This document shows, piece by piece, positions 44,320 through 58,006 of a DNA stretch of 64,000 nucleotides. The position numbers and the translations under genes were made by a program. The stretch covers positions 3,249 to 67,248 of the forward strand of contig CALFZO010000004.1 in NCBI GenBank assembly GCA_937952305.1. Reading direction: 5' to 3'. This stretch comes from an uncultured Anaerolineales bacterium (GTDB lineage: Bacteria; Chloroflexota; Anaerolineae; Anaerolineales; UBA6663). The notes below the pieces were generated by a model. The model was given only the letters and a program-made list of their open reading frames with translations. It was not told where the DNA came from and ran no database searches. Every line of letters begins with the position of its first letter. The first letter of the stretch is position 1.

Positions 44320-44430
44320 GCGCTCGCTCGTTCGAGAAGGGCAAACCCGGTGAAAACCGGGGACGCAAAGCCATGGGTCTGTAGCCCGGGAGAAATCCGG
44401 GCCATGATCGCCAGGCTACCGAAGACGAGG
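44320..44430 (+). promoter_or_regulatory. cyclic-di-GMP-I (GEMM-I) riboswitch aptamer
   Basis: AAGGGCAAACCCGGUGAAAACCGGGGACGCAAAGCCAUGG...CCAUGAUCGCCAGGCUACCGAAG matches the Vc2 aptamer core (GGGCAAACC-stem/GAAA loop-GGGACGCAAAGCC...GGUUACC). Downstream, CGUCCU (44454-44459) can pair with AGGACG (44469-44474) and occlude the SD just before AUG 44475. Confidence 0.85.
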
Positions 44431-44474: not shown

Positions 44475-45143
44475 ATGGTCCGCCGACTCCTCGCTTGCGC
44501 GCTTTTCCTGTCCGTCCAATTCGTGATCGCGTCCACGCCCGTGCAGGCCGACTCCGGCCAGGGCGCGGTCGAGTACAGCGTCTATCTGCCGCTCCTGACG
44601 CGCGAGGCCACCGCGGCCATGGCGCTGCCAGCCGAGCCCGGCTTCCCGTCGCTGCTGGACTTCACGGCGACGGTGGCGGGCGGCCCGGCCGACACCGTGA
44701 CCGGCGTGTATGTGTCCGAGGTCCTGGCCCTGCCGGTCATCCAGCAGCCGGCCGACAACTACGGCTACGTCTCTGAGCAGGTGGGGGTGGTCACGCAGTT
44801 CCGGCTGGCGGCCAGCTACGGCGTCACCGGTCTGCTGGCGCACAACTTTGCCTCCGGAGCCCTGTTCTTTGAGCTGGCGCCGGGGCAGCGCGTGCACGTC
44901 ATCCTGGGCGACGGCTCGGCGAAGGAGTACCAGGTGAGCGAGATCCTGCGTTATCAGGCCTTGCAGCCGTTCAGCACGGCCAGTGATTTTGTGGACCTGG
45001 CGACCGGCGAGCAACTCACGGCCGGCCAGGTGTTTGCGCGCGCGTACATGGGCGGCGACCAAGTGACGTTTCAGACTTGTATTGCGAGCGGCGGTATTGG
45101 GAGTTGGGGGCGGTTATTTGTGATCGCGACGCCGGTGGAGTGA
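44475..45143 (+). CDS. secreted sortase-like transpeptidase-fold protein
   Basis: Signal peptide MVRRLLACALFLSVQFVIASTPVQA. A His (LLAHNF), Cys (VTFQTCI, 79 aa later) and Arg (WGRLFVIA, 11 aa later) are spaced like the sortase catalytic triad. Confidence 0.55.
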   Translation: MVRRLLACALFLSVQFVIASTPVQADSGQGAVEYSVYLPLLTREATAAMALPAEPGFPSLLDFTATVAGGPADTVTGVYVSEVLALPVIQQPADNYGYVSEQVGVVTQFRLAASYGVTGLLAHNFASGALFFELAPGQRVHVILGDGSAKEYQVSEILRYQALQPFSTASDFVDLATGEQLTAGQVFARAYMGGDQVTFQTCIASGGIGSWGRLFVIATPVE

Positions 45144-45653: not shown

Positions 45654-48062
45654 TCAGCCGCCGAGCGCCAGCTTTACGACGGTGACGCCGTCGCCGCCCT
45701 CGTTGTCGGCGCCGGTGGCCTGGCTCTTCACCACTGGGTTGGCGCGCAGGAAGTCACGCACAGCCTGACGCAGCTTGCCCGTGCCCTTGCCGTGGATGAT
45801 CCGCACCCAGGGCAGTTCGGCCAAGTAGGCGGCGTCCAGGTATTGCTCCACTTCCGGCAGCGCCTCCTCCACGGTCTTGCCGCGGATATCGAACTCCAGG
45901 CCGGGCGATTCGGCTTTCGGCGCGCGGCTGGCCTTGGGGCTTTCCGCGGCTGGCGCCGGCTCCGGTTCGTCGTGGGCGGCCGCGCCGCGGAGTTCGACTT
46001 CATCCAGCTTGGTGCGCACGCGCAGGCGCCCGACCTTGACCTCGGCCTCGGTGGCCGTCAGGGCTGTGACCACGCCGATGCTGTTCAGCGCTTTCAGCTT
46101 GACGGTGTCGCCCAGGCGGATGGCGCGCCGCGGGCCGGCGGCCAATTGCGTCTGCGGCAGCGGCGCGGCCGGCACCCGCGCTTTCTCCTCGGCCTGGTCC
46201 AGCGCGCCCTCCACGTCCGCCACCGGCTCCAGCGATTGGCCGGCCCGCGCCAGCTTGGCCTTCAGCCGGCTGACTTCGTCGCGCAGGGCCTCCAGCTCCT
46301 GGGCGGCCTGCTGGCGCGCCTGTTCGATGATCTGGCGTCGCTCGGCCTCGATGCGCTCCAGGCGCCGCGCCAGCTCCCGCTCGCGCAGCTCCGTTTCCGC
46401 GCGCGTCGTCGCCATGCGCTCGCGCTCACCGCGCACCGCCTCGCGCTGGCGGTAGATCTCGTCCAGCAGCTGCTCGGTCTCCAGATTGGCCTGCGCCACC
46501 ATCGTCTTGGCCTCGTCGATGATGGTCTGGTTCAGGCCGAGGCGCGCGGCGATGGCGAAGGCGTTGGAGCGTCCCGGCAGGCCGATGGTCAGATGGTAGG
46601 TGGGCAGCAGCGTGTCTGGGTCGAATTCCATGCTGGCGTTTTTGACGCCGGGCTTGGTGTGGGCGTAGCCCTTGAGCTCCGGGTAGTGCGTGGCCACGAG
46701 GGCCGTAGCGCCCATGTCCAGCAGGAACGACAAGACGGCGCGCGCCAGCGCCGAGCCTTCGGCCGGGTCGGTGCCGGCGCCGAGTTCATCCAGGATCACG
46801 AGGGCGTGCTCGTCCACCTGGTCCAGGATGCGCACGATGTTGGTGAAGTGCGCCGAGAACGTGGACAGCGACTGCTCGATGGACTGCTCGTCGCCGATAT
46901 CGGCGAAGATGTTCTGGAAGAGCGCCAACTCGGACCCGGACTGGGCCGGCAGATGCAGGCCGGATTGCGCCATGAGCACCAGCAGGCCGACGGTTTTGAG
47001 GGTGACGGTCTTGCCGCCGGTGTTGGGGCCGGTGATGACCAGCGCGCGCGTGTCGCCCGCGATCTCGACGTCGATGGCGACGACGGTCTCCGGGTTGAGC
47101 AGCGGATGGCGCGCGGCGAACAGGCGCAAGATAGCGGGCGCCGGCTGGCCGTCTGACGGTTTGCGGCTGGCGGCCTCGGCCGTCAGGATCGGCTCGCTGG
47201 CGCGGAGCGCGTCCGCGTACTTGGCGCGCGCGAAGATGCAGTCGAGCTCGGCCAGCGCCTCCACCGTGCGCGTGATCGGCTCGGCTTGCGCGCCGATCAG
47301 GGCGGACAGCTCCGCCAGGATGCGCCGGATCTCGTCCTGTTCGGCCAGCTGCAGCTCGCGCAGGGCGTTGTTCAGCTCCACGGTCGCCAGCGGTTCGATG
47401 AAGATGGTGGCGCCCGAGGCGGACTGGTCGTGGACGACGCCGCGGATGCGGCCTTTGAAGTCGGCTTTGAGCGGGATCACGTAGCGCCCGTCGCGCTGGG
47501 TGACGATGGCCTCCTGCAGGTAGGGGCCGTTGCGCGGATCGCCGATGATGCGCTCCAGCTTGGTCAGCAGGCGGCCGTGCGCAACCTTGAGGTCACGCCG
47601 GATCTGAGCCAGCTTCTCCGAGGCCGAGTCCAGCACTTCGCCGCGCTCGTCGATGGTGTTGCCGATGGCCTCCACCAGGCCGGGCGTCTCCTCCAGCCCG
47701 TTGGCGACGAAGGCCAGACGCGGGAACTGGTCGCCCAGCCGGCTGAGGATGCGGCGCAGCGTCCGGGCGGCGATGAGCGTGTTCTTGATGTCGAGCAGGG
47801 CGGCCGTGTCCAGCACGCCGCCGCGCGCGGCCAACTGCGCCGGCCCGCGCACGTCACGCGCCCCGCCCAGCGTCACGTCGGTCTTCACGGCCAGCAGCTT
47901 GCGGGCTTCGCTGGTTTCTTGCTGGCGGCGCCGCGCTTCGGTCAGGTCGGTCGTGGGCGCCAAAGCCAGGACCTGGCCGGCGCCGGCCGAGAACGACGCA
48001 TACCGGGCGGCCCGCTCGAGGATTTTGTGCAGTTCAAGGACTTGCAGCGATTTGGCGTCCAT
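45654..48062 (-). CDS. mutS2: endonuclease MutS2
   Basis: Walker A ITGPNTGGKTVTLKT, MutS domain V DELGAGTDP, long coiled coil, and C-terminal Smr domain DIRGKTVEEAL...IIHGKGTGKLRQAV. Confidence 0.93.
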   Translation of the reverse strand: MDAKSLQVLELHKILERAARYASFSAGAGQVLALAPTTDLTEARRRQQETSEARKLLAVKTDVTLGGARDVRGPAQLAARGGVLDTAALLDIKNTLIAARTLRRILSRLGDQFPRLAFVANGLEETPGLVEAIGNTIDERGEVLDSASEKLAQIRRDLKVAHGRLLTKLERIIGDPRNGPYLQEAIVTQRDGRYVIPLKADFKGRIRGVVHDQSASGATIFIEPLATVELNNALRELQLAEQDEIRRILAELSALIGAQAEPITRTVEALAELDCIFARAKYADALRASEPILTAEAASRKPSDGQPAPAILRLFAARHPLLNPETVVAIDVEIAGDTRALVITGPNTGGKTVTLKTVGLLVLMAQSGLHLPAQSGSELALFQNIFADIGDEQSIEQSLSTFSAHFTNIVRILDQVDEHALVILDELGAGTDPAEGSALARAVLSFLLDMGATALVATHYPELKGYAHTKPGVKNASMEFDPDTLLPTYHLTIGLPGRSNAFAIAARLGLNQTIIDEAKTMVAQANLETEQLLDEIYRQREAVRGERERMATTRAETELRERELARRLERIEAERRQIIEQARQQAAQELEALRDEVSRLKAKLARAGQSLEPVADVEGALDQAEEKARVPAAPLPQTQLAAGPRRAIRLGDTVKLKALNSIGVVTALTATEAEVKVGRLRVRTKLDEVELRGAAAHDEPEPAPAAESPKASRAPKAESPGLEFDIRGKTVEEALPEVEQYLDAAYLAELPWVRIIHGKGTGKLRQAVRDFLRANPVVKSQATGADNEGGDGVTVVKLALGG

Positions 48063-48274
48063 ACCTAATCAGAAAGCCGGCCCACTGGCCGGCCGCGCCT
48101 GGGCCGCCGCGCGGCGGTCCGGTCGTGAATGACAGTTGCGGCGATTCTAACCGAAAAACGGGGGCGGGGAGCGGGCGGCTAGCACCCCGTCCGCCGGCTT
48201 AGGCTGGAGGGGCGCCAGCTCAGCGCCGTTTGAGCTAGACAGCGCCTATCCAGTTCTTTCAGGTGGACGGGGCG

Positions 48275-51200
48275 CTAGCGGGTGGCCTCGGCCAGCCGCG
48301 CGCACAAGACGCGCATCACGGCCAGGCTGACGTCCGGGCGCTCGCGCAGCAGGCCTTCAAAACTCTTGCGGTCCAGGCTCAGGGCGCGCACATCGCCGGC
48401 AGCGATGAGCGAGGCCATGCGCGGCTCCTGGCTGATGATGGCCATCTCGCCGACCACGTCACCGGACTTGCGCCGCGCGACTTCGGCGCCGTCCACGCTC
48501 ACGCGCACCTCGCCCGAGACGAGCACGTACAGCTCGTCGCCGGCCTCGCCCTGGGCCACGAGAGTTTCACCGTCCGGGAAGACCTGCTCGGACGCGAGCA
48601 CGGCCACCTGTTTCAAGTCGGCCGGGGCCAGGTCCACGAAGAGCGGCACGCGGCGCAGGAACAGGATGCGGTCCATGACGGACAGGGTCGGTAAGGTGTT
48701 CATGGTAGTTCCTAGGGCGGACAGGGCCGTGGAGCGGACCAGTTCATCCGGATCGGACACGGCCCGGCGCGCCAGGGCCGCGCGCACGTCCGGGTCGGAG
48801 GAGCCAGCCGCGGCCAGGGCGGCGCCGGCCCGGATCCAGGCCTCCGGTTCGGCCTCCAGCAGGTCGGCCAGATGTTGGTCCAGCGGAACGACGGCGCGCT
48901 GGGCGTCGGCCGGCTCCCAGGGCCGCAGCAGCGGCCGCAGCCGGCTCAGCGTGGGCAGGGTCTCCAGTGCCTCCAGGGCGTTGGCCACCTGCGCCGGAGT
49001 GCGGCTCTGCAGGTTTTCCGCGGCCAACCGGACGGCCTCGCGCTCCTCCAGCAGGCCCAGCGCGCGCAGGGCGTTCAGGGCCTGCTGGCGGGCTGAGTCG
49101 CGCAGCGAGTCGGCTAGCAGCCGGATGCGCTCATCGCGGGCCTGCGGAGCGACGTCGCGCCAGAGCAGGTCATAATGCACGGTGGCGGTCAGGCGCCGGT
49201 CGACATACTGGCGCAGCGCGTCGGCGGCCCGCCAGGCCGGCAGGCCCTGCAGCGTCAACAGGGCGGCCGCCTCCCGTGTCGGATCGTTGAGTGCGGCGAC
49301 GACGGGCGGCAGCGCCGGCGCGCCCAGGTGGATCAGGGCGTCCACCGCCGCCTCGCGCACGCCGTTGTCACGGTCGCCCAGGGCCTGGGCCAGCGGCGGG
49401 ATCGCGGCGGCGCCGCCAGCGGCTAAAGCGCGGGCCGCAGCGCGGCGCACGGCCGCGGGGGCGTAAGCGTCGGCGAGTTCGGCTTCGATCAGGGCGTAGG
49501 CCTCGGCATCCCCCCAATCGGCCAGCGCGTTGAGCGCGTGGACGCGTTCGTCGAGTTGGCCCAGCACTGCCATCTGGCGCAGTTGGTCACGCGCCTGCGC
49601 GTGCGGCCCCAGCGCCAACAGGGCCACGGCCGCGCGCGCGCGCACCGCGGCCTCCGGGTCAGCCAGCAGCGGCTGCAGCAGGTCCGCCAGGCCCTGCGGG
49701 TAGCCGGCCAGTGAGCGCAAGGTCTCCACCGCCTGCAGGCGCACCTCGGGCTCCGGGTCGCGCAGACGCGCGGCGACGGCCAGTAGGGCCGAGGCGGCGT
49801 TGGCGCGCGACAGCGCACACAGCACCGCGCGGCGCACCTCGCCCACCGGATCGTCCAGCGCGGCCACCAGCGCCGCCGTGACCTGGGCCGCGGCCGGGTG
49901 GCCGCGCTTCTGCAGGTGGCCCAGGATCTCGGCGGACACCCGCCGCACGGCCGCGTTGGCGTCCGTCAGGCCGCGCTGGGCCACCGCCACGGCGGCCGCG
50001 TCGCGGCGGAAACCGCCGAACGGTTCTTCCTCGCTGAAGAACAGGCTCGGCTGACCGGCGCGCAGCGCCTCCAGCAACGCGCCGCGATAAGCGCGGCTGG
50101 CGCGCCACAGGCTGAAAGCAGTGACGGCGGCGGCGGCCAGCCCCACCAGGTAGAGCTGCGCGGGCGCGAAGGCCTGCTCGCCGACCCACAGCACCACGCC
50201 GGCGATGAGGGTGCCGGCCTGCTCAGGCCCGCCGCTGATGAAGGCGCGCACTTGATCGCGGCGCTCGGCCGGGACGGCGTTGAACAAGGCTTGGTAGGCG
50301 GCGTCGGCCAGGCCGGCCAGCCACACCATTTGCGCGAAGCGGAAAGCCACGATGGCCGGGAAGCTGGCGGCCAGGGCCAGCCAGGCGAAGCCGGCCAGGT
50401 AGAGGATGGGGAAGGCCAGCAGCATCACCATCAGCCCGAAGCGCGCGTACAGCCGGTTGGCCAGGATGAGCGAGGCCAGGAAGGCGGCCGCCGTGCTCAG
50501 CCCGTTGAACAGGCCCAGGAAGCCGGCCAACTCGGCTTCGTCCGGGAATTGCGCCGCCATGGTTTTGGCGAAGGGCAGGGCGATGGAGAAGTACAGGATC
50601 GAGAAAAGGACGGCGGCGACCGCGATCCAGCCCATGAGCGGCGAGCGCCGCACGAACTGGAAGCCGCGCTGCATCTCCACCGCCAGACTGGCCGGACGCG
50701 GCTGGCGGCGCGGCGCGGCCAGGGCGACGGCTGGCGCGCCCAGCAAGGCCCGCGTAAGGCCGAAGGCAGCCAGCAGCGCGCCGGCCCAGAGCAGCAGCAG
50801 GTTCTCGGTGCCCAGCACGGCCACCAGCGGGCCGGTGCCGAAGCCGCCCAGGACGGCGCCCAGAATGCGGCCGGCGCCGAAGAGCGGGAAGAGGCGCTTA
50901 GCCTGGCGCGTGTCACAGACCGCGCCGGCCACGCCCCAACAGAACAGGCCCATGAGCGCATTGAGGACTTCTTTGCCCAGCCACAGGCCGGGGTAAGCGC
51001 CGGGCAGGTCGAGGAGCAAGAGCGCGCGCGCGGCCACCAGGACCACGGCCATGGCCACCGGCAGCGCCAGGTACAGGCGCGTGCGCGGCAGCCGCCCGAG
51101 CATGGCCGTGATGGCCAGCGAGGTCAGGCCGGTGAGGACCGCCAGGCCCATGTACAGGAAGGGCAGATATTGGACGCCGAAACGCGCGAAGAACAGGGCC

Positions 51201-51319
51201 TCGACACCGGTGCTGCCCAGGCTGAAGCCAGCCGAGGTGAGCACCATCAGGCCGATTACCAGGGAAGCCATCCGGCCTTCGCCTGGACGAATCTTGAGGA
51301 GGTCCGCCCAGCGGCTCAT
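48275..51319 (-). CDS. fusion protein: ~12-TM MFS / ATP:ADP-antiporter-like transporter, HEAT repeats, and a C-terminal cyclic-nucleotide-binding domain
   Basis: The N-terminal ~430 aa are polytopic. The middle has PBS-lyase/HEAT-like repeats (DDPVGEVRRAV, RDPEPEVRLQAV, ADPEAAVRARAA, GDRDNGVREAAV). The C-terminal CNB domain carries the phosphate-binding cassette GEMAIISQEPRMASLIA. Confidence 0.8.
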   Translation of the reverse strand: MSRWADLLKIRPGEGRMASLVIGLMVLTSAGFSLGSTGVEALFFARFGVQYLPFLYMGLAVLTGLTSLAITAMLGRLPRTRLYLALPVAMAVVLVAARALLLLDLPGAYPGLWLGKEVLNALMGLFCWGVAGAVCDTRQAKRLFPLFGAGRILGAVLGGFGTGPLVAVLGTENLLLLWAGALLAAFGLTRALLGAPAVALAAPRRQPRPASLAVEMQRGFQFVRRSPLMGWIAVAAVLFSILYFSIALPFAKTMAAQFPDEAELAGFLGLFNGLSTAAAFLASLILANRLYARFGLMVMLLAFPILYLAGFAWLALAASFPAIVAFRFAQMVWLAGLADAAYQALFNAVPAERRDQVRAFISGGPEQAGTLIAGVVLWVGEQAFAPAQLYLVGLAAAAVTAFSLWRASRAYRGALLEALRAGQPSLFFSEEEPFGGFRRDAAAVAVAQRGLTDANAAVRRVSAEILGHLQKRGHPAAAQVTAALVAALDDPVGEVRRAVLCALSRANAASALLAVAARLRDPEPEVRLQAVETLRSLAGYPQGLADLLQPLLADPEAAVRARAAVALLALGPHAQARDQLRQMAVLGQLDERVHALNALADWGDAEAYALIEAELADAYAPAAVRRAAARALAAGGAAAIPPLAQALGDRDNGVREAAVDALIHLGAPALPPVVAALNDPTREAAALLTLQGLPAWRAADALRQYVDRRLTATVHYDLLWRDVAPQARDERIRLLADSLRDSARQQALNALRALGLLEEREAVRLAAENLQSRTPAQVANALEALETLPTLSRLRPLLRPWEPADAQRAVVPLDQHLADLLEAEPEAWIRAGAALAAAGSSDPDVRAALARRAVSDPDELVRSTALSALGTTMNTLPTLSVMDRILFLRRVPLFVDLAPADLKQVAVLASEQVFPDGETLVAQGEAGDELYVLVSGEVRVSVDGAEVARRKSGDVVGEMAIISQEPRMASLIAAGDVRALSLDRKSFEGLLRERPDVSLAVMRVLCARLAEATR

Positions 51320-51390
51320 GTTTGGGTAAGCCCATTATGCCATTGTCGCGCGGGATGTGCGCGGTCGGAGGGGAGCGCGGCCAGCGCGCG

Positions 51391-52485
51391 TCAGGCCGCT
51401 GGCGCTGCGACGGCCTGAAGGCGCTGGGCCAGGTTGCGGAGCAGTTGAGCAGACGGGTAAATCCGGGTGAACAAGAAGCGCAGGATCAGGCGATCCAGGG
51501 CCGTGCTGCCCGTCACGCGGCCGCGTTCGCAGACGTGCAGGTGCGTGCCGCCGTCCGGGGTCGGAGTGAGGTAGAACGTCGCCAGGCATTCGACGGGCGA
51601 GAAACTCTGACGCACGGTGAAATACTCGAAGGGCCGCCAATCCAGCACCGTCTCGACCATGGCCAGCTTCCGACCATGCAGGCAATGGGTCTGGGCGCCG
51701 ACCCCGGTCCGGCCGCCCGGCCGGGCCACGGCCTGGAAGACCAGGCCGGCTTCAAAGGCATACTCCGGCCGCTTGGCGGGATCATTCAGCCATTCCCAGA
51801 CGATGGCCGGCGGCGCGGCGCAACTCTGGTCTGTCACCACGTAGGCGTCCGCGTCCGTCACGGCCACGCGGCGCGCCTCGACCAGGGCCTGGTAGCGCGG
51901 CCGCAGGTCATAGCTCAACGTGGCCACGCTGCCCAGGTGCTCATAGGTCTCGGTCAGGCGCTGAAGGTCATCCAGCTCCAGGCCCAGATGCTCGCGCACG
52001 CGTTCGGTGAAGAGCAGGTAGGCGCGCCAGCCAGTGGCCTCGGCGACGTGGTTCTTCAGCAGGCGGTGGGCCAGGTTTACATCGGATCCCACCAGCTCCC
52101 GGATGCCGGCGACGTTCTGGACGATGTAGTCGCCGTGGTGCAGGATGAACTTGAGATCGAGCTCGGGGAGGGCGCGGCAGGCGCGGCAGGTGCAGGTGGT
52201 GCGCCGCTGCGCGGCGGCGCGCCGGTCGCAGAAGCGGGTGTAGGCGGTTTCCAGCAGATCCAGCAGCGTCTCGCCGCGCGGCACGCGCGCCTCCGCCGCG
52301 TAGGCGAACACCGCATCGCCTTCCAGCTTGGCCAGCGTGAACAAACCCGTCAGGCTGGCGACGATCACGGCCAAGAGGTCGCTCAGGATCTCGTGGGCGT
52401 GATCCAGCTCGACCTGGGCCAGGTACGCCGTGTAGCCGGAGATATCGGCCAGGACCAGGTAACCGTGCTGGGTCTTATTATCCAT
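51391..52485 (-). CDS. DUF2652-like (class III nucleotidyl-cyclase-like) domain fused to an SRPBCC/START-like domain
   Basis: GYLVLADISGYTAYL ... KLEGDAVFAYA. The two Asp residues are 43 aa apart, as in the cyclase-homology-domain metal site. The C-terminal half has SRPBCC-like pattern AAPPAIVWEWLNDP...WRPFEYFTV. The ATG at 52485 is M11 of the track ORF, which starts at a TTG. Confidence 0.6.
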   Translation of the reverse strand: MDNKTQHGYLVLADISGYTAYLAQVELDHAHEILSDLLAVIVASLTGLFTLAKLEGDAVFAYAAEARVPRGETLLDLLETAYTRFCDRRAAAQRRTTCTCRACRALPELDLKFILHHGDYIVQNVAGIRELVGSDVNLAHRLLKNHVAEATGWRAYLLFTERVREHLGLELDDLQRLTETYEHLGSVATLSYDLRPRYQALVEARRVAVTDADAYVVTDQSCAAPPAIVWEWLNDPAKRPEYAFEAGLVFQAVARPGGRTGVGAQTHCLHGRKLAMVETVLDWRPFEYFTVRQSFSPVECLATFYLTPTPDGGTHLHVCERGRVTGSTALDRLILRFLFTRIYPSAQLLRNLAQRLQAVAAPAA

Positions 52486-52589
52486 GGCGGGAGGTCCAGT
52501 CCCTGCGCTGAACAAAAACGGGAGTAGGCCACACTCAGCCTACTCCCGTCGGGCGCGCGGCTCCAGACCACGCCTTGCTCAATGGGTGC

Positions 52590-55055
52590 TCACTTTTGCA
52601 GCCGCTTTTGCAGCTCGTCCCAGCGATCCGGCGTCTCCGGCTGGGGGCGCGGGCGGCGCAGCAGCGGCTGCCCATCAAGGCTCAACCAGCGCCGGGTCCA
52701 GCGGTGGACGGCCCGCTGGAGGCCCTGGCTCCAGACCAGGTTGCGCAACCCCTGCCAGGCGCCGAGCGCCAGTCGGCCGTTGGCGATCTCCGGGTAGGGG
52801 CTGTACTGCTCGGCCACGTACTGGGCCGTGATCGTGTCGACGGCTGGGCGCGCCTCGGGCAGGGCGCTCGTCAATTCCTGGGCGCGCTCGTGGGGCGTCA
52901 GGTGATCGGGCAGCCGCAGGCCCAGCCAGTGGGCGGCCCTTTCCAATTCCAGGTAGGCCTGCGTCACCGCCGACGGCACGGCGCGGCGCAGCCAGCGCAG
53001 GATCTGGCGGCCCGGCCGGCCGAGGCTTTCCAGGCCGAGCAGGTTCGCGCGCACCAGCAGGCCCAGAGTGACGCCGCCGGCGACGGCCAGCACACCCAAG
53101 CCGGTCAGCAGAGTCCGGGCCCAGCGCCCGACTTCGGTCAGGTCGATGGTGAGGCTGGGAGCGGCCTCGGCCGGGCCTTCGTCGGGCGGCGGCGTTGGTT
53201 CGTCGTCGAGCGCGGGCGTGGGCGGCGCCACGGGCGTCAGGGACTCAAACTCGACACTGGTGGGCGTCGGCCGGTCCGGACGCACCAGCGGCGGCTCGGA
53301 CGTGGTCGGCTCAAACTCGATCCAGCCGTAGCCCGGGAAGAAGACCTCCGGCCAGGCGTGGGCGTTGCGCTCGCGCACCAGGTAGGCGCGCGTGGTGGTA
53401 TCCAGCTCGCCTTGCGCGAAGCCGACGGCCAGGCGCGCCGGCGTGCCCAGCGAGCGCAGCAGGATCACCATCGCGGAGGCGTAGTAGTTGCAGTAGCCGC
53501 GGCGCGACTCAAACAGGAAGTAATCCAACGGCTCCGCGCCCTGCGGCGGGGCCGCGATCCCGAGATCGTAGGTGATGTTGTCGCGCAGCCAATCGGTGAT
53601 TGCCTGGGCCTGGTCGAAGGGCGTGGTGGCGCCGGCGGACTCCACGATTTGCCGGGCCAGCGCGCGGGTGCGGGGTGTGATGGTGTCCGGCACCTGCAGG
53701 AAATACGCGCTGACCCAGTCTGGGTAATCCTGACCGGCGCCGCGCAGGCTCTCTTTGTCCGCCACCGAGACCGAGGCCACGATGCGGTAGCGGCGGTCGT
53801 CGCCGGTGAGCATCGTCTGTGCGCGGACGGCCACCGGATCCACCGTGCCGTCGGCGCTGAGATAGGTTTCGAAGGAAACCGCCCGGTCCACCAGACGCGG
53901 CTGCGGCAGGACGTACAGGCGGCTGGTGGCGTTGAGATAAGACGTGAACGTGGCGCTGACGTCCTCGCGCAGCCGATACGGCGGCAGGCGCAGCGCGCCG
54001 CGCGTGGGCGTCTGCTCGCGGATCTCCAGGCCATCGCCGAGCTCCCAGCGTCCGGCGACGTACTCCTGATAGGCGTAGGCGCGCCAGTAGTAGCGCGGGA
54101 CGTCCGGCAGGAGCAAGTCTTCGGGCGGAAGTTCAGCGCTGGGGCCGGTCTCGCGCGGCGGCACGATCGGGTCCAGGACCACCGTCAGGATTTCCCGGTT
54201 GGTCAGCGACGTGGCGCCGCCCAAGGCCAGCGAATTGCCATAGAAGTCCTCGGCCACCAGTCCCGGATTGCGCACCGAGTTGAACAGGCGCTCGAAGTTC
54301 TCGCGCACCGTCGCCCAGGCGCCGTTGACCTGGCTCCAGGCGGTGGCGGCCTGGGGTGACGCCGACGCCACCGTCACGCGCTGGCCCAGCCAGGCGAAGG
54401 CGACGATGGCCACCGCGGCCACCAGGCCGGCGCGCAGGAACTCAAAGCGCGTGTCCGGCGTGTAGGCCACCCGCGCGCCGCGCCACTCGTGTTCCTGATC
54501 CAGCAGGTTCATGCGCGCCAGCAGCAGCAGCGCCAGCACCAGGTAGGCGCCCAGGTACAGCTCCAGCTCCTGGCCGATGTAGTAATAGCTGTTGATGAGG
54601 AGGACAATGCCGCCCGGCAGGATGGCCGGCCAGACGGTGCCGCGCCGGAACACGGCCCAGGCGGCGGCGACGCCGATATACCAGAACACCAGGCCCACGA
54701 AGACTGGGAAGGGCAGGATATCGCGCGAGGTCCCGCCATTGAGGGCGTAGTAGATAAAGTTGTTGAGGCGGATCAACAGTTCGAGGGTGCGCAGGTGCCA
54801 GTCCCCTTGCAGTTCGCTGTTGCAGATGAGGAAGCCAACCCAGAAAGCGCCGTAGACGGTGGCGAACAACGTGGCGACGAAACCTGTGAAGCGGCTCTTG
54901 CTCAGGGCTAACCCGGCCAGCACGCCGATCAGGCCGGCCACGCTGGCCGTCCAGAGGCCAGGCGCCCAGCCCGGCGCTTCCACTCCCCAGGCCGATACCA
55001 CGACCAGGCTGGCCACCAATCCGACCGTCGCCCAGCCTTCATCCAGTTTGAGCAT
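52590..55055 (-). CDS. transglutaminase-like membrane protein (TgpA/DUF3488-type)
   Basis: N-terminal multi-TM region. Transglutaminase core RRGYCNYYASAMVILLRSLGTPARL...NAHAWPEVFFPGYGWIEFEPT (Cys-His-Asp/Glu). C-terminal TM plus DUF4129-like tail. Confidence 0.88.
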   Translation of the reverse strand: MLKLDEGWATVGLVASLVVVSAWGVEAPGWAPGLWTASVAGLIGVLAGLALSKSRFTGFVATLFATVYGAFWVGFLICNSELQGDWHLRTLELLIRLNNFIYYALNGGTSRDILPFPVFVGLVFWYIGVAAAWAVFRRGTVWPAILPGGIVLLINSYYYIGQELELYLGAYLVLALLLLARMNLLDQEHEWRGARVAYTPDTRFEFLRAGLVAAVAIVAFAWLGQRVTVASASPQAATAWSQVNGAWATVRENFERLFNSVRNPGLVAEDFYGNSLALGGATSLTNREILTVVLDPIVPPRETGPSAELPPEDLLLPDVPRYYWRAYAYQEYVAGRWELGDGLEIREQTPTRGALRLPPYRLREDVSATFTSYLNATSRLYVLPQPRLVDRAVSFETYLSADGTVDPVAVRAQTMLTGDDRRYRIVASVSVADKESLRGAGQDYPDWVSAYFLQVPDTITPRTRALARQIVESAGATTPFDQAQAITDWLRDNITYDLGIAAPPQGAEPLDYFLFESRRGYCNYYASAMVILLRSLGTPARLAVGFAQGELDTTTRAYLVRERNAHAWPEVFFPGYGWIEFEPTTSEPPLVRPDRPTPTSVEFESLTPVAPPTPALDDEPTPPPDEGPAEAAPSLTIDLTEVGRWARTLLTGLGVLAVAGGVTLGLLVRANLLGLESLGRPGRQILRWLRRAVPSAVTQAYLELERAAHWLGLRLPDHLTPHERAQELTSALPEARPAVDTITAQYVAEQYSPYPEIANGRLALGAWQGLRNLVWSQGLQRAVHRWTRRWLSLDGQPLLRRPRPQPETPDRWDELQKRLQK

Positions 55056-55473
55056 CTGCTTGGCTCCTCGCTGCGCGCATATTCTACCCGCCTGCCCCCG
55101 TCCGGGTTCACTTGCTCACCATCCGCTCATTTGAGCGATTCCGTCGACTCGCGCGGCCCAGGCGCCACCGCCGCGAAGCGCAGTGGAGGCCAGGGCCGGG
55201 ACGATAGTGGGAGGGGGAGGTCCTGGACGCGGCGGCGTGGAGAGCGGGCGCCACCCTGACACCCGGACCTCTGGGCGAGTCGCGCGGATTCGCGCCCGTG
55301 CTAAAATCAAATCGGTGTGATCTGGTAGCCTTCAAACAGTCTCTTAACGGAATGTTGGCTCCCGGATCGGCCGAACATCCTTAAAATTGTGGGTAAGTCG
55401 CCGACCTGGCCCGGTTCGGGGCCAGCCGGCCGTGGGTGCCGTTCCAGCAGTTCGGTGAGACAGGGCGAAAGCC

Positions 55474-56892
55474 GTGCCTATTTTCAACATCGACGGTCAG
55501 CAAATCCACGCCGTCCAGCAAGGCCAGCCCAACCGGCAGGTGGCGCTGCTGATCCACGGCTGGTCGAGCTCGTGGTATGCCCTGTCGCCGCTGATCCCGC
55601 TGCTCTCCCAGCGTTTCAACTGCATCGCCGTCGACCTGCCCGGCTATGGCCAGTCGCCGCCCATGAAGGAGCGGGTCACCATCGCCGCCTACGCCGACCT
55701 GCTGGCGCGCCTGATCGAGGAGGTCAGCAACGGGCCGGTGGTGCTGGTGGGCCATTCCATGGGCGGCATGATCAGCGCGATGCTGGCCATGCGCCACCCG
55801 GTGCTGGTGGAGCGCATGGTCCTGGTCTGCCCCACGATCAGCGGCAACCTGTCCACCATGATCAACCTGACGATCTCGCCGATCACGATCATGGAGCGCT
55901 TCGGCCTGGGCAGCTTCCTGGTCACCACCTTTGAGAACCTGATCGTCGGCATCACCGACCGCCTGATGCGGCCGGTGTCGTTCTCGGTGCGCACCGGCAT
56001 CTCGGCCGAGGACTACACCCGGCTGCGCGCCGACGCCCGCCGCCCCGGCCAGGGCCGCACGCGCTATGAGTGCTTCTACGCCATGCGCGAAAGCAACCTG
56101 GGGGGCAAGCTGACCGGCGTCGAGCCGCCCACGCTCGTCATCTGGGGCGCCGAGGACAACACGGTGCCGCTGCGGGATTCGGCCATCGTGGCCGACGAGT
56201 GGGCCCAGGCCGACCTGCGCATCCTGCCCAAGGCCGGCCACTGGCCGCAGTTTGAGACGCCCGATATCACGCGCCGGCAGATCGCGTCTTTCCTGGGCCT
56301 GCCGCTCACCCCGCAGCAGAAGCCGGTCGGCGACGACGAGCTGGCGGCGGCCCGCGAGATCGCCCAGTTTTTGGGCAACTCCGATGTCGGCAACAACCTC
56401 AACTCGCCGCAGTTGATCCGGCTGGCCGCCCAGTTCCGCCAGCGCCGCTACAACTCCGGCGACGTCATCGCCCGCATCCAGGACGGCGGCACGGAGATGT
56501 TCATCGTGCGCGAGGGCACGGTGGAGGTCTGGAACGACCCAGACAACATCGGGGCCGGCGCCAACGTGCAGCGCCTGCGCCACGTGGCTTCGCTCAACCC
56601 CGGCCAGATCACGGGCGAGCTGGCCATGCTGGATGGCGGCCTGCGCAGCGCCGACCTGCGCGCCGGGCCGGACGGCGCCACCATGCTGGTCCTGGAGCGC
56701 GAGCAGCTGCTGGCGCTGGTGGACGAAGACGCCGAGCTGGGCACGCGTGTCCTGTGGAACATCGCCCGCGCCATGGCGCTGCGGGTGCGCTTCATCCTCT
56801 GGCAGCTGCAGCGCGCGCTGCAGAAGTCTGGCGCGCCGGCCAAGCCGGCCGCCCCCACCGACAGCGAATTCCAGCGCGAGAAGGCCAACTGA
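55474..56892 (+). CDS. alpha/beta-hydrolase fused to a cyclic-nucleotide-binding domain
   Basis: HGWSSS, nucleophile elbow GHSMGG and C-terminal His (KAGHWPQFE), followed by a CNB domain with GELAMLDGGLRSADLRA. GTG start. Confidence 0.85.
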   Translation: MPIFNIDGQQIHAVQQGQPNRQVALLIHGWSSSWYALSPLIPLLSQRFNCIAVDLPGYGQSPPMKERVTIAAYADLLARLIEEVSNGPVVLVGHSMGGMISAMLAMRHPVLVERMVLVCPTISGNLSTMINLTISPITIMERFGLGSFLVTTFENLIVGITDRLMRPVSFSVRTGISAEDYTRLRADARRPGQGRTRYECFYAMRESNLGGKLTGVEPPTLVIWGAEDNTVPLRDSAIVADEWAQADLRILPKAGHWPQFETPDITRRQIASFLGLPLTPQQKPVGDDELAAAREIAQFLGNSDVGNNLNSPQLIRLAAQFRQRRYNSGDVIARIQDGGTEMFIVREGTVEVWNDPDNIGAGANVQRLRHVASLNPGQITGELAMLDGGLRSADLRAGPDGATMLVLEREQLLALVDEDAELGTRVLWNIARAMALRVRFILWQLQRALQKSGAPAKPAAPTDSEFQREKAN

Positions 56893-57022
56893 CCGCCGCC
56901 GCCCCAGGGCGAGCGTGAGGCTGGGCTCACCGGATTACCCGGATGTCCTACTGTCCCCGCGCCCCGGATCGTCCTACAATTAGCCCCGATTTACGACCGC
57001 GTTCACTCACAGGAGGTCTCCC

Positions 57023-58006
57023 TTGAAAGTGCTCGTCACCGGCGGCGCCGGCTATATCGGCAGCATTACCTCGGCCGAGTTGCTGAAGGCCGGCCACGAC
57101 GTCGTCGTCTTCGACAACCTCTACCAGGGCCACCGCGAGGCCGTGCCGGACGGCGCCGCCTTCATGGAGGGCGACCTGCGCGACGAGGCCGCCGTCGCCC
57201 GCCTGTTCCAGGAGCACCGCGGCTTCGACGGCATCCTGCACTTCGCCTCGTTCACGCTGGTGGGCGAGAGCATGCAGCTGCCGCTCAAGTACCTGCGCGA
57301 TAACCTGGTGGCCGGCGCCAACCTGCTGGAGCAGGCCGTCCAGCACGGCGTCGGGCGCTTCATCCTGTCTTCCACGGCCAACCTGTTCGACGCGCCCGAG
57401 CGCATCCCGATCGAGCCGGACGAACGCATCGTGCCGGGCTCGCCCTACGGCGAATCTAAGTTCTTCCTCGAACGCACGCTGCACTGGTTCGAGCGCATTC
57501 ACGGGCTGAAGTACGCGTGCCTGCGCTATTTCAACGCCGCCGGCGACACGCCCGACCGCGGCGAAGATCACGAGCCGGAGCTGCACCTGATCCCGCGCGT
57601 CTTGAGCGTGGCCCAGGGCAAGTTGGACAAGATCGTGATCTTCGGCGGCGACTATCCCACCAAGGACGGCACCTGCGTCCGTGATTACATCCACATCGTC
57701 GATCTGGCGCAGGCGCACATCCTGGCGCTCGGCGCGCTGGACCGCCTGGGCAGCCGCAAGTACAACCTCGGCAATGGCAACGGCTTCACCAACCTGGAAG
57801 TCGTGGAGACCGCGCGCCGCATCACCGGCCACCCGATCCCGCACGAGATCGGCCCGCGCCGCGCCGGCGATCCGGCCGTGTTGATCGCGTCGTCGGAGAA
57901 GATCCGGAGCGAGCTCGGCTGGAAGCCGCGCTTTGACACGCTCGACTCGATCGTCGGCAGCGCCTGGGAGTGGCACAGCCGCCATCCCAAGGGCTATCAC
58001 GCCTGA
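57023..58006 (+). CDS. galE: UDP-glucose 4-epimerase
   Basis: [21 protein letters not shown] (YxxxK), and NAAGD...[13 protein letters not shown] start in the track, with a GTG 6 nt downstream as an alternative. Confidence 0.9.

Follow-up and report, generated by a model that had tools for sequence, protein, structure and literature searches.

A conserved gene pair in Chloroflexota links a DUF2652-SRPBCC cyclase-like protein to an NTT-HEAT-CNB transporter

The window analysed here is a stretch of 64,000 nt from an uncultured Anaerolineales bacterium. On its minus strand, it carries two consecutive genes that form a conserved pair. The upstream gene encodes a protein in which a DUF2652 domain, with the predicted fold of a class III nucleotidyl cyclase, is followed by an SRPBCC domain. 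The downstream gene encodes a membrane transporter-like protein that ends in HEAT repeats and a cyclic-nucleotide-binding (CNB) domain, and is referred to here as NTT-HEAT-CNB (NTT-HEAT-cNBD in the literature). We consider it probable (roughly 60%) that this producer–receptor pair is a functional unit in which a cyclic nucleoside monophosphate (cNMP) gates the transporter. The region examined, positions 48275-56892, contains four long open reading frames (ORFs), and Pfam profile searches agree with the domain make-up described for them in an initial annotation (Table 1). That annotation read all four as one self-contained module, with one producer and two effectors. Among relatives, the conserved unit is the two-gene pair, DUF2652-SRPBCC then NTT-HEAT-CNB, and not the four-gene island.

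The pairing can be seen from either of its genes. For DUF2652, 80 genome loci and four metagenome loci were fetched (1.16 Mb in total), and their ORFs were searched with the domains of the window. Relatives of the window protein belong almost entirely to Chloroflexota, chiefly metagenome-assembled genomes of Anaerolineales. Sufficient downstream DNA is available at 72 of these loci, and 29 of the 72 carry an MFS-HEAT-CNB gene directly 3' of the DUF2652-SRPBCC gene, or of the last member of an array of such genes, in the same orientation. The spacing between the domain matches in paired loci is mostly less than 400 nt, and only three CNB domains occur outside such transporters in the whole 1.16 Mb. 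For the transporter, 80 metagenome loci carrying relatives at 35–68% identity were collected. Seventeen have too little upstream DNA, and DUF2652-SRPBCC is directly upstream of the transporter gene in 23 of the remaining 63. By this co-occurrence check, DUF2652 and the MFS-HEAT-CNB gene occur together far more often than chance would produce. Within the DUF2652-paired clade, the pair is kept in at least 10 different flanking contexts.

Canonical cyclases are found beside the same transporter family. A PF00211 cyclase fused to a STAND NTPase and TPR repeats is present in 18 further transporter loci, within about 4 kb (mostly less than 500 bp) on either side and on either strand. This is the commonest upstream gene family among transporter loci that lack DUF2652. 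Altogether, a class III-type cyclase (DUF2652 or PF00211) adjoins or lies near the transporter gene in 41/63 loci, while 22/63 have neither type. Two different cyclase types thus flank the same receptor family, and this is the strongest argument both for a cyclase role of DUF2652 and for a receiver role of the transporter's CNB domain. A literature search found no report of operonic coupling of the DUF2652 and NTT-HEAT-cNBD families. This coupling, and the occurrence of canonical cyclases beside the same transporter family, appear to be unreported.

The surroundings and copy number of the paired genes vary among relatives. Tandem arrays of three to five DUF2652 paralogues occur in L003 (6079-14565), L005 (6091-11576), L017 (2726-12499), and L008 (384-3858). 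All array paralogues retain the catalytic residues, and the arrays of L003 and L017 have a transporter gene embedded in them. The first gene of the array in L003, L005, and L017 encodes a short form of ~290 aa that has no SRPBCC domain and carries Ile for the transition-state Asn. In an Anaerolineales locus (L022, 6553-14073), two NTT-HEAT-CNB paralogues, 36% and 52% identical to that of the window, flank one DUF2652-SRPBCC gene, and a PF00211-type cyclase lies further upstream. Another type of CNB effector linked to the same transporter family is encoded by a cNMP_binding-HATPase_c (histidine-kinase-like) gene, ~1-1.2 kb upstream of the transporter gene in L117 (3439-4857), L121 (1-1410), and L143 (56-1480). 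In one sub-clade (L073, 7778-15988; L063, L066, L040, L047, L057, and L081), the pair is flanked by cell-envelope or lipid genes. MurJ is encoded divergently on the upstream side (19 loci). The gene that immediately follows the pair, in the same orientation, encodes a two-domain PLD-like protein (13 loci) and is itself followed by a PIG-L deacetylase gene (nine loci), with a divergent PAP2 gene nearby. The closest transporter relative (68% identity; L087, 410-4120) is found in a locus with syntenic transglutaminase and MutS2 genes. Here, DUF2652 is replaced by ~3.7 kb between the transglutaminase and transporter genes, and the ORFs of this stretch have no Pfam match.

The DUF2652 domain (PF10851) of the window protein scores 93.9 bits against a Pfam gathering cut-off of 22.1. 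The most likely start codon of its gene is the ATG at 52485, giving 364 aa, because identical public contigs from a bioreactor-sludge metagenome call the gene from there. The Pfam Guanylate_cyc profile (PF00211) does not match the protein at E<=0.01, and a plain sequence search against PDB chains returned nothing meaningful. Because sequence and profile searches against the PDB gave nothing usable, folds had to be compared. An AlphaFold2 model of the domain, built with 42 homologues, has a mean predicted local distance difference test score (pLDDT) of 89 and a predicted TM-score of 0.86. In a Foldseek search of this model against the PDB, the top 50 matches are all class III cyclases (E 3e-11 to 3e-7, target TM-score up to 0.75), led by OaPAC (E 3e-11), bPAC, Cya2, CyaC, CyaB, and Rv1900c. 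A hidden Markov model (HMM) seeded only on canonical PF00211-type cyclases recruited 145 DUF2652 ORFs in its third round, and the iterated HMM matches the window protein at E 2e-4. An hhalign comparison with PF00211-type cyclases from related loci puts the catalytic residues of DUF2652 in register with the motifs FTDIEGST, EGD, GLHTG, and VNxAAR.

Residue conservation was scored in the 42-sequence alignment and in 134 further homologues from the fetched loci. The two metal-type Asp residues noted in the initial annotation sit in LADISGYT and KLEGDAVF (D14 and D57) and are invariant in both sets, as is the transition-state residue R141. The remaining positions are nearly as constant among the 134: K53, the first base-specifying position, is retained in 125; E130, the second, in 123, with Asp in seven more; and the transition-state N137, in the motif DVNLAHRL, in 126. 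Class III cyclases use Lys/Asp as the base-specifying pair for ATP and a Glu/Cys-type pair for GTP. The Lys/Glu pair found here (K53/E130) is neither of these. Judged by the model, DUF2652 adopts the fold of a class III cyclase, with the full catalytic set of D14, K53, D57, E130, N137, and R141, and its proposed cyclase-like nature is upheld on both counts.

The prediction of a cyclase is itself not new. Ramakrishnan et al. described DUF2652 as a class III cyclase-like family in 2016, from a set of 53 proteins that included none from Chloroflexota (PMC4886424). The window protein is of their ‘K,E / D,D / R’ type, and the same ‘K,E’ type is listed there with its class labelled ‘AC/GC’. One Bradyrhizobium DUF2652-polyketide-cyclase fusion, and loose cNMP-binding neighbours in mycobacteria, are also on record (PMC4886424). 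The mycobacterial members carry Ile at the position where the window protein retains the transition-state Asn. The Cys motif discussed below, the tandem arrays, and the pairing with NTT-HEAT-cNBD are not described in that study. Homologues carry the JGI pipeline label ‘class 3 adenylate cyclase / YndB with AHSA1/START domain’. The novelty attached to DUF2652 in the initial annotation was therefore overstated, although its remark that no DUF2652 protein had been shown to make a nucleotide holds in the searchable literature.

The second domain of the protein matches the Pfam family Polyketide_cyc2 (31.7 bits against a cut-off of 27.4) as well as AHSA1. A profile of the SRPBCC domain found PDB entries only at E>0.03. 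Modelled alone, the domain reaches a pLDDT of 90, and Foldseek matches the model to AHSA1-family proteins, CalU16/DynU16, PYR/PYL, and Bet v 1 (E 5e-8 to 3e-5). By this structural comparison, all of the matches are hydrophobic-ligand pockets. The two-domain DUF2652-SRPBCC form dominates the closest cluster representatives, with full-length proteins making up nearly all of the best 150. Its relatives comprise 4073 clusters at 50% identity at E<=1e-3, and 879 at E<=1e-30. The combination of a cyclase with a C-terminal SRPBCC sensor was not found in the literature.

Both domains contain invariant Cys or His motifs. The CxCxxC motif is an insertion relative to canonical cyclases. Its residues C98, C100, and C103 are invariant in 176/176 sequences, and even the short paralogues without an SRPBCC domain retain the motif. 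The HCxH motif (H267-C268-x-H270) is invariant wherever the SRPBCC domain is present. The pattern of these residues suggests that CxCxxC and HCxH form one or two metal or redox sites. Neither set of residues is mentioned in PMC4886424, and no published account of the CxCxxC motif was found. Both the Cys motif and the SRPBCC sensor-cyclase combination appear to be unreported. H116 was considered as a fourth zinc ligand of a Cys3His site and rejected as evidence for one, because the GxHxG histidine with which it aligns is a generic feature of every class III cyclase.

The transporter gene encodes a protein with about 11-12 hydrophobic segments in its membrane domain. Among 20 members of the family, this domain is matched by TLC in 16 (best E 2e-12) and by MFS_1 in 19. 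The window protein also matches the NTP/NDP exchange transporter model TIGR00769 (E 1e-5), and one relative is named ‘Npt1/Npt2 family nucleotide transporter’ by NCBI. A protein search aimed at transporter relatives beyond Chloroflexota brought up a further Anaerolineales lineage. A profile of the HEAT domain matches alphaRep/HEAT structures. The CNB domain matches the regulatory CNB domains of PKA and PKG (E 1e-37 to 1e-30), and its phosphate-binding cassette (GEMA...RMAS), already recognised in the initial annotation, was confirmed. The cassette residues G957-E958...R967-x-A969 (G..GE...R.A) are invariant in 20 transporter homologues, and the order of HEAT then cNMP-binding domain is common to 20/20 relatives. 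Fusions of this kind were described in cyanobacteria, chlamydiae, and oomycetes by Major, Embley and Williams in 2017, who speculated that cAMP from an adenylate cyclase tunes NTT-mediated ATP uptake (PMC5381601). Chloroflexi contributed just two sequences to their survey, which did not look at cyclase genes nearby (PMC5381601).

From these features, we infer how the pair might work. Binding of a small hydrophobic ligand in the SRPBCC pocket would set the activity of the DUF2652 cyclase, and the invariant Cys/His motifs may bring metal or redox state into this control. DUF2652 itself would be a divergent class III nucleotidyl cyclase, probably a homodimer, making a 3',5'-cyclic NMP. The best guess for the product is cAMP, because of the Lys/Glu pair at the base-specifying positions. 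The cNMP would then bind the C-terminal CNB domain of the NTT-HEAT-CNB protein, which is encoded immediately downstream and presumably co-transcribed. From there, the signal could pass via the HEAT-repeat arm to switch the N-terminal NTT-like transporter domain on or off.

Several observations weigh against this interpretation of the pair. About 60% of DUF2652-SRPBCC loci have no adjoining transporter gene, and about a third of the evaluable transporter loci have no adjoining cyclase. When 99 transporter domains were placed on a neighbour-joining tree, those paired with DUF2652 fell into what is essentially a single clade; members of the remaining clades have a PF00211 cyclase as partner, or none. 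The pairing thus has few origins, and the counts given above are not independent. At the second base-specifying position, the canonical Asp is replaced by Glu. The hhalign profile-profile score against PF00211-type cyclases is weak (E 0.007, probability 5%), and the TLC match of the window transporter barely exceeds its threshold (25 against 21 bits), with MFS_1 also matched. Finally, the literature search found no biochemical test of any DUF2652 protein or of any NTT-HEAT-cNBD protein, and later papers add nothing on the latter.

These points leave room for other explanations. One is that the pair serves nucleotide homeostasis or export: the NTT-like domain would move the cyclic nucleotide itself, or its NTP precursor, while the CNB domain would read the cytoplasmic concentration and adjust efflux or supply accordingly. 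In support, the membrane domain falls in the TLC/Npt branch of the MFS, that of the nucleotide transporters, and its gene directly follows one for a cyclase of either type; the tuning of ATP uptake by cAMP proposed in PMC5381601 is a related idea. However, no substrate is known for any NTT-HEAT protein (PMC5381601), the TLC similarity is marginal in the window protein, and sequence alone cannot separate nucleotide transport from the gating of another substrate, so we regard this as possible but unlikely. Doubt may instead fall on the enzyme. If DUF2652 were not a cNMP synthase, it could make a linear or oligomeric nucleotide, or act as a non-catalytic ligand, metal, or redox sensor with only an indirect link to the CNB transporter. 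The Cys and His motifs, which have no counterpart in canonical cyclases, the Glu at the specificity position, and arrays of up to five paralogues (unusual for cyclases) would fit such a role, as would the negative literature search for biochemical tests. It is nevertheless improbable, as all six catalytic positions are under strong constraint, the GGDEF motif is absent (PMC4886424), canonical PF00211 cyclases flank the same receptor family, and the receptor domain is a canonical cNMP-binding domain. A bolder version of the cyclase reading, which we treat as a long shot, makes DUF2652-SRPBCC a distinct metal- or redox-dependent class III branch, in which CxCxxC and HCxH bind Zn or an Fe-S cluster. 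The product would be neither cAMP nor cGMP but, for example, a cyclic pyrimidine or another nucleotide, which the partner, as the first of its kind among nucleotide transporters, would either carry or be gated by. The last alternative among those that concern the pair alone is anti-phage defence of the Pycsar type, in which a cyclic pyrimidine made on infection activates a CNB-fused membrane effector that kills or arrests the cell. As in Pycsar, a class III-type cyclase stands beside a membrane protein with a similar CNB domain, which matches the CNB regions of PycTIR and PycC in PADLOC (E 3e-20 and 8e-15), and the copy number of the cyclase gene differs among relatives. These matches cover only the generic CNB domain, however, and score no better than Pfam cNMP_binding, while the DUF2652 protein matches no PADLOC model, that of PycC included. 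Rather than being a protein of 2-4 helices or a TIR effector, the effector here belongs to a family of 12-helix transporters of 1000 aa, which shows vertical conservation in cyanobacteria, chlamydiae, and oomycetes. The flanks are housekeeping genes (MutS2 and MurJ), and no mobile-element genes were seen. The PADLOC scan thus leads us to reject a Pycsar assignment, and a defence role of this kind is very hard to credit.

The remaining alternative extends the unit to all four genes, as the initial annotation did: DUF2652 as the producer, the transporter-CNB and hydrolase-CNB proteins as effectors, and a shared divergent control region. In its favour, the two CNB genes and the cyclase-like gene within these 8.6 kb are the only ones of their kinds in the whole 64 kb. 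Both phosphate-binding cassettes are canonical, GELA...RSAD of the hydrolase (in full, GELAMLDGGLRSAD) having been confirmed along with that of the transporter. In M. tuberculosis, a DUF2652 gene also lies near cNMP-binding transporter-like and lipase-like genes (PMC4886424). The closest relative, L170, in which the hydrolase-CNB protein is 90% identical, retains the order hydrolase-CNB, transglutaminase, DUF2652. Elsewhere, this arrangement dissolves. The hydrolase-CNB family is strongly conserved in Anaerolineae (65-90% identity, full length), yet its gene occurs in 0/84 DUF2652 loci and 0/80 transporter loci, and L170 is the only other place where it was found near DUF2652. In L167 (80%), the transglutaminase gene that it faces is not followed by DUF2652, and it stands in unrelated contexts in L171 (80%), L168 (71%), and L169 (67%). 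The transglutaminase, for its part, is beside DUF2652 only in L170 and in four of the 84 DUF2652 loci (L005, L008, L010, and L028), where the order is transglutaminase, DUF2652 array, MutS2; the synteny in L005 does not include a hydrolase-CNB gene. The slot between the transglutaminase and MutS2 genes holds one to five DUF2652 genes, with or without a transporter gene. In the window, a terminator-like hairpin splits the transglutaminase gene from DUF2652, and the hairpin proposed for the control region is not conserved. Given the contexts of the hydrolase-CNB gene in relatives, the island appears to consist of two units, with the transglutaminase gene as their meeting point, and a single four-gene module is quite unlikely. 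Of the proposed producer and two effectors, gene linkage supports DUF2652 and the transporter. The hydrolase-CNB protein is an independent CNB protein, genetically untied to the cyclase-transporter pair, although it may read the same cellular nucleotide pool. The transglutaminase is a neighbour, syntenic in close relatives only, and not part of the conserved pair.

The two proteins of the pair share features with several known systems. With class III cyclases such as Spirulina CyaC, Synechocystis Cya2, P. aeruginosa CyaB, M. tuberculosis Rv1900c, and bPAC/OaPAC, the window protein shares the predicted fold and, in the same motifs, the metal Asp residues, the Lys, and the Asn/Arg pair. Like many bacterial class III cyclases, it fuses the catalytic domain to a sensor domain. 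It differs from them in having no Guanylate_cyc match, in carrying Glu for Asp or Thr at the second specificity position, and in its CxCxxC insertion before strand 4 and C-terminal SRPBCC sensor. The transporter shows the same three-domain order as the NTT-HEAT-cNBD proteins of Major et al. (PMC5381601), a likeness that rests on domain architecture. The cyclase genes adjoining or near it are the addition made here. In M. tuberculosis, the DUF2652 genes Rv2561/Rv2562 lie a few genes from the cNMP-binding genes Rv2564 and Rv2565 (PMC4886424 Table 2). In contrast to the pair in the window, DUF2652 there comes without an SRPBCC domain, the genes do not directly adjoin each other, and H37Rv has a frameshift in Rv2561/62. 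The partner families also differ: we take Rv2564 and Rv2565 to be an ABC ATPase and a patatin-like protein (transport-related and lipid-hydrolase-type, respectively), as against NTT-HEAT and an alpha/beta hydrolase here. Among CNB-regulated solute carriers, sperm SLC9C1 is a precedent: the activity of this secondary transporter is controlled by a CNB domain fused at its C-terminus (PMC6052114). That protein is eukaryotic, has an unrelated Na+/H+ exchanger fold with a voltage sensor, and is not known to have a HEAT arm or a linked cyclase gene.

The pair joins two widespread orphan families, one predicted to be a cyclase (DUF2652) and the other a cNMP-tuned nucleotide transporter (NTT-HEAT-cNBD), in predictions that are about a decade old. 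The conserved operon, together with the canonical cyclases beside the same transporter family, links both predictions in what would be a minimal two-protein system. The pairing of a cyclase with a CNB effector is standard cNMP-signalling logic, and this is not a new kind of system. What bacterial cNMP signalling gains is the SRPBCC sensor-cyclase combination and an invariant Cys motif, from a poorly explored phylum, the Chloroflexota. Relatives of the transporter occur in Chlamydia trachomatis, cyanobacteria, and oomycete pathogens. If the metal- or redox-dependent branch outlined above were real, it would assign a function to this transporter family in those organisms as well.

The coordinates of all features are collected in Table 1. 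Judged from its translation, the protein encoded upstream of the pair can be classed as a TgpA-like transglutaminase, with a Cys-His-Asp/Glu motif (YCNYYA, NAHAW, and EFEPT), a polytopic membrane part, Transglut_core at 100.8 bits, and DUF4129 at 28 bits. The transglutaminase of L005 also matches TgpA_N. NCBIfam holds no model that matches the DUF2652 or transglutaminase proteins. The 104-nt spacer between these two genes, in which the terminator-like hairpin lies, folds at -52 kcal/mol (z -3.5).

Table 1. Genes, domains, and sequence elements of the cyclase-transporter region and its flanks in the window.
Feature	Position	Strand	Details
MutS2 (MutS_V + Smr)	45654-48062	minus	Directly downstream of transporter gene
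NTT/MFS-HEAT-cNMP-binding fusion	48275-51319	minus	1014 aa; TLC + MFS_1, HEAT_2 E 3e-26, cNMP_binding E 1e-19 (Pfam)
C-terminal CNB domain	48275-48658	minus	Residues ~888-1014 + stop; cNMP_binding E 1e-19, 70 bits
HEAT-repeat linker domain	48680-50002	minus	Residues ~440-880; HEAT_2 E 3e-26, 92 bits, four to five stretches
Membrane transporter domain, NTT/TLC-like within MFS	50030-51319	minus	Residues ~1-430
DUF2652-SRPBCC ORF	51391-52515 (gene from ATG 52485)	minus	DUF2652 E 9e-27, Polyketide_cyc2/SRPBCC E 2e-7 (Pfam)
SRPBCC (Bet v1/AHSA1/START-like) domain	51391-51870	minus	Residues 206-364 + stop; presumed ligand sensor
HCxH motif H267-C268-x-H270	51676-51687 (codons 267-270)	minus	In SRPBCC domain
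Cyclase-like DUF2652 domain	51871-52485	minus	Residues 1-205 of 364-aa protein
CxCxxC insertion C98-x-C100-x-x-C103	52177-52194 (codons 98-103)	minus	Precedes strand 4 of cyclase domain
Terminator-like hairpin	52517-52550	minus	14-15 bp stem + U-run, between transglutaminase stop and DUF2652 start (terminator scan)
TgpA-like membrane transglutaminase	52590-55055	minus	821 aa; Transglut_core + DUF4129 (Pfam)
-10-like element TGCTAAAAT	55299-55307	plus	Upstream of hydrolase-CNB gene, read in sequence
Alpha/beta-hydrolase-CNB fusion	55474-56892	plus	472 aa; Abhydrolase_1 E 2e-33, cNMP_binding E 6e-12 (Pfam); GHSMG nucleophile elbow

The spacer between the transglutaminase and hydrolase-CNB genes (55056-55473) measures 418 nt, as had been given, and contains less control structure than was first read into it. 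The letters of the extended -10 are present; of these, L170 shares the TAAAAT but lacks the TG. A promoter scan of 47500-57500 found no two-hexamer sigma-70-type site. The imperfect hairpin at 55349-55380 sits in an insertion that is specific to the window when compared with its closest relative. A riboswitch or structured leader in this spacer was considered and dropped, because an Rfam scan gave only a sub-threshold sRNA match (17 against 35 bits) and the fold of the 5' leader is unremarkable when set against shuffled sequence (z -1.9). Just upstream of the transglutaminase start, a block at 55105-55140 (GGTTCA...CTCA...CCGCTCATTTGAGC) is conserved with L170, and may be a promoter or leader of the transglutaminase gene.

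A further nucleotide-related element lies ~4 kb from the cyclase-transporter locus. It is a c-di-GMP-I-GGC riboswitch aptamer (RF03167) at 44331-44424 on the plus strand (70.8 bits, E 1e-14), and it precedes a 222-aa ORF (44475-45143, plus strand) without a Pfam match.

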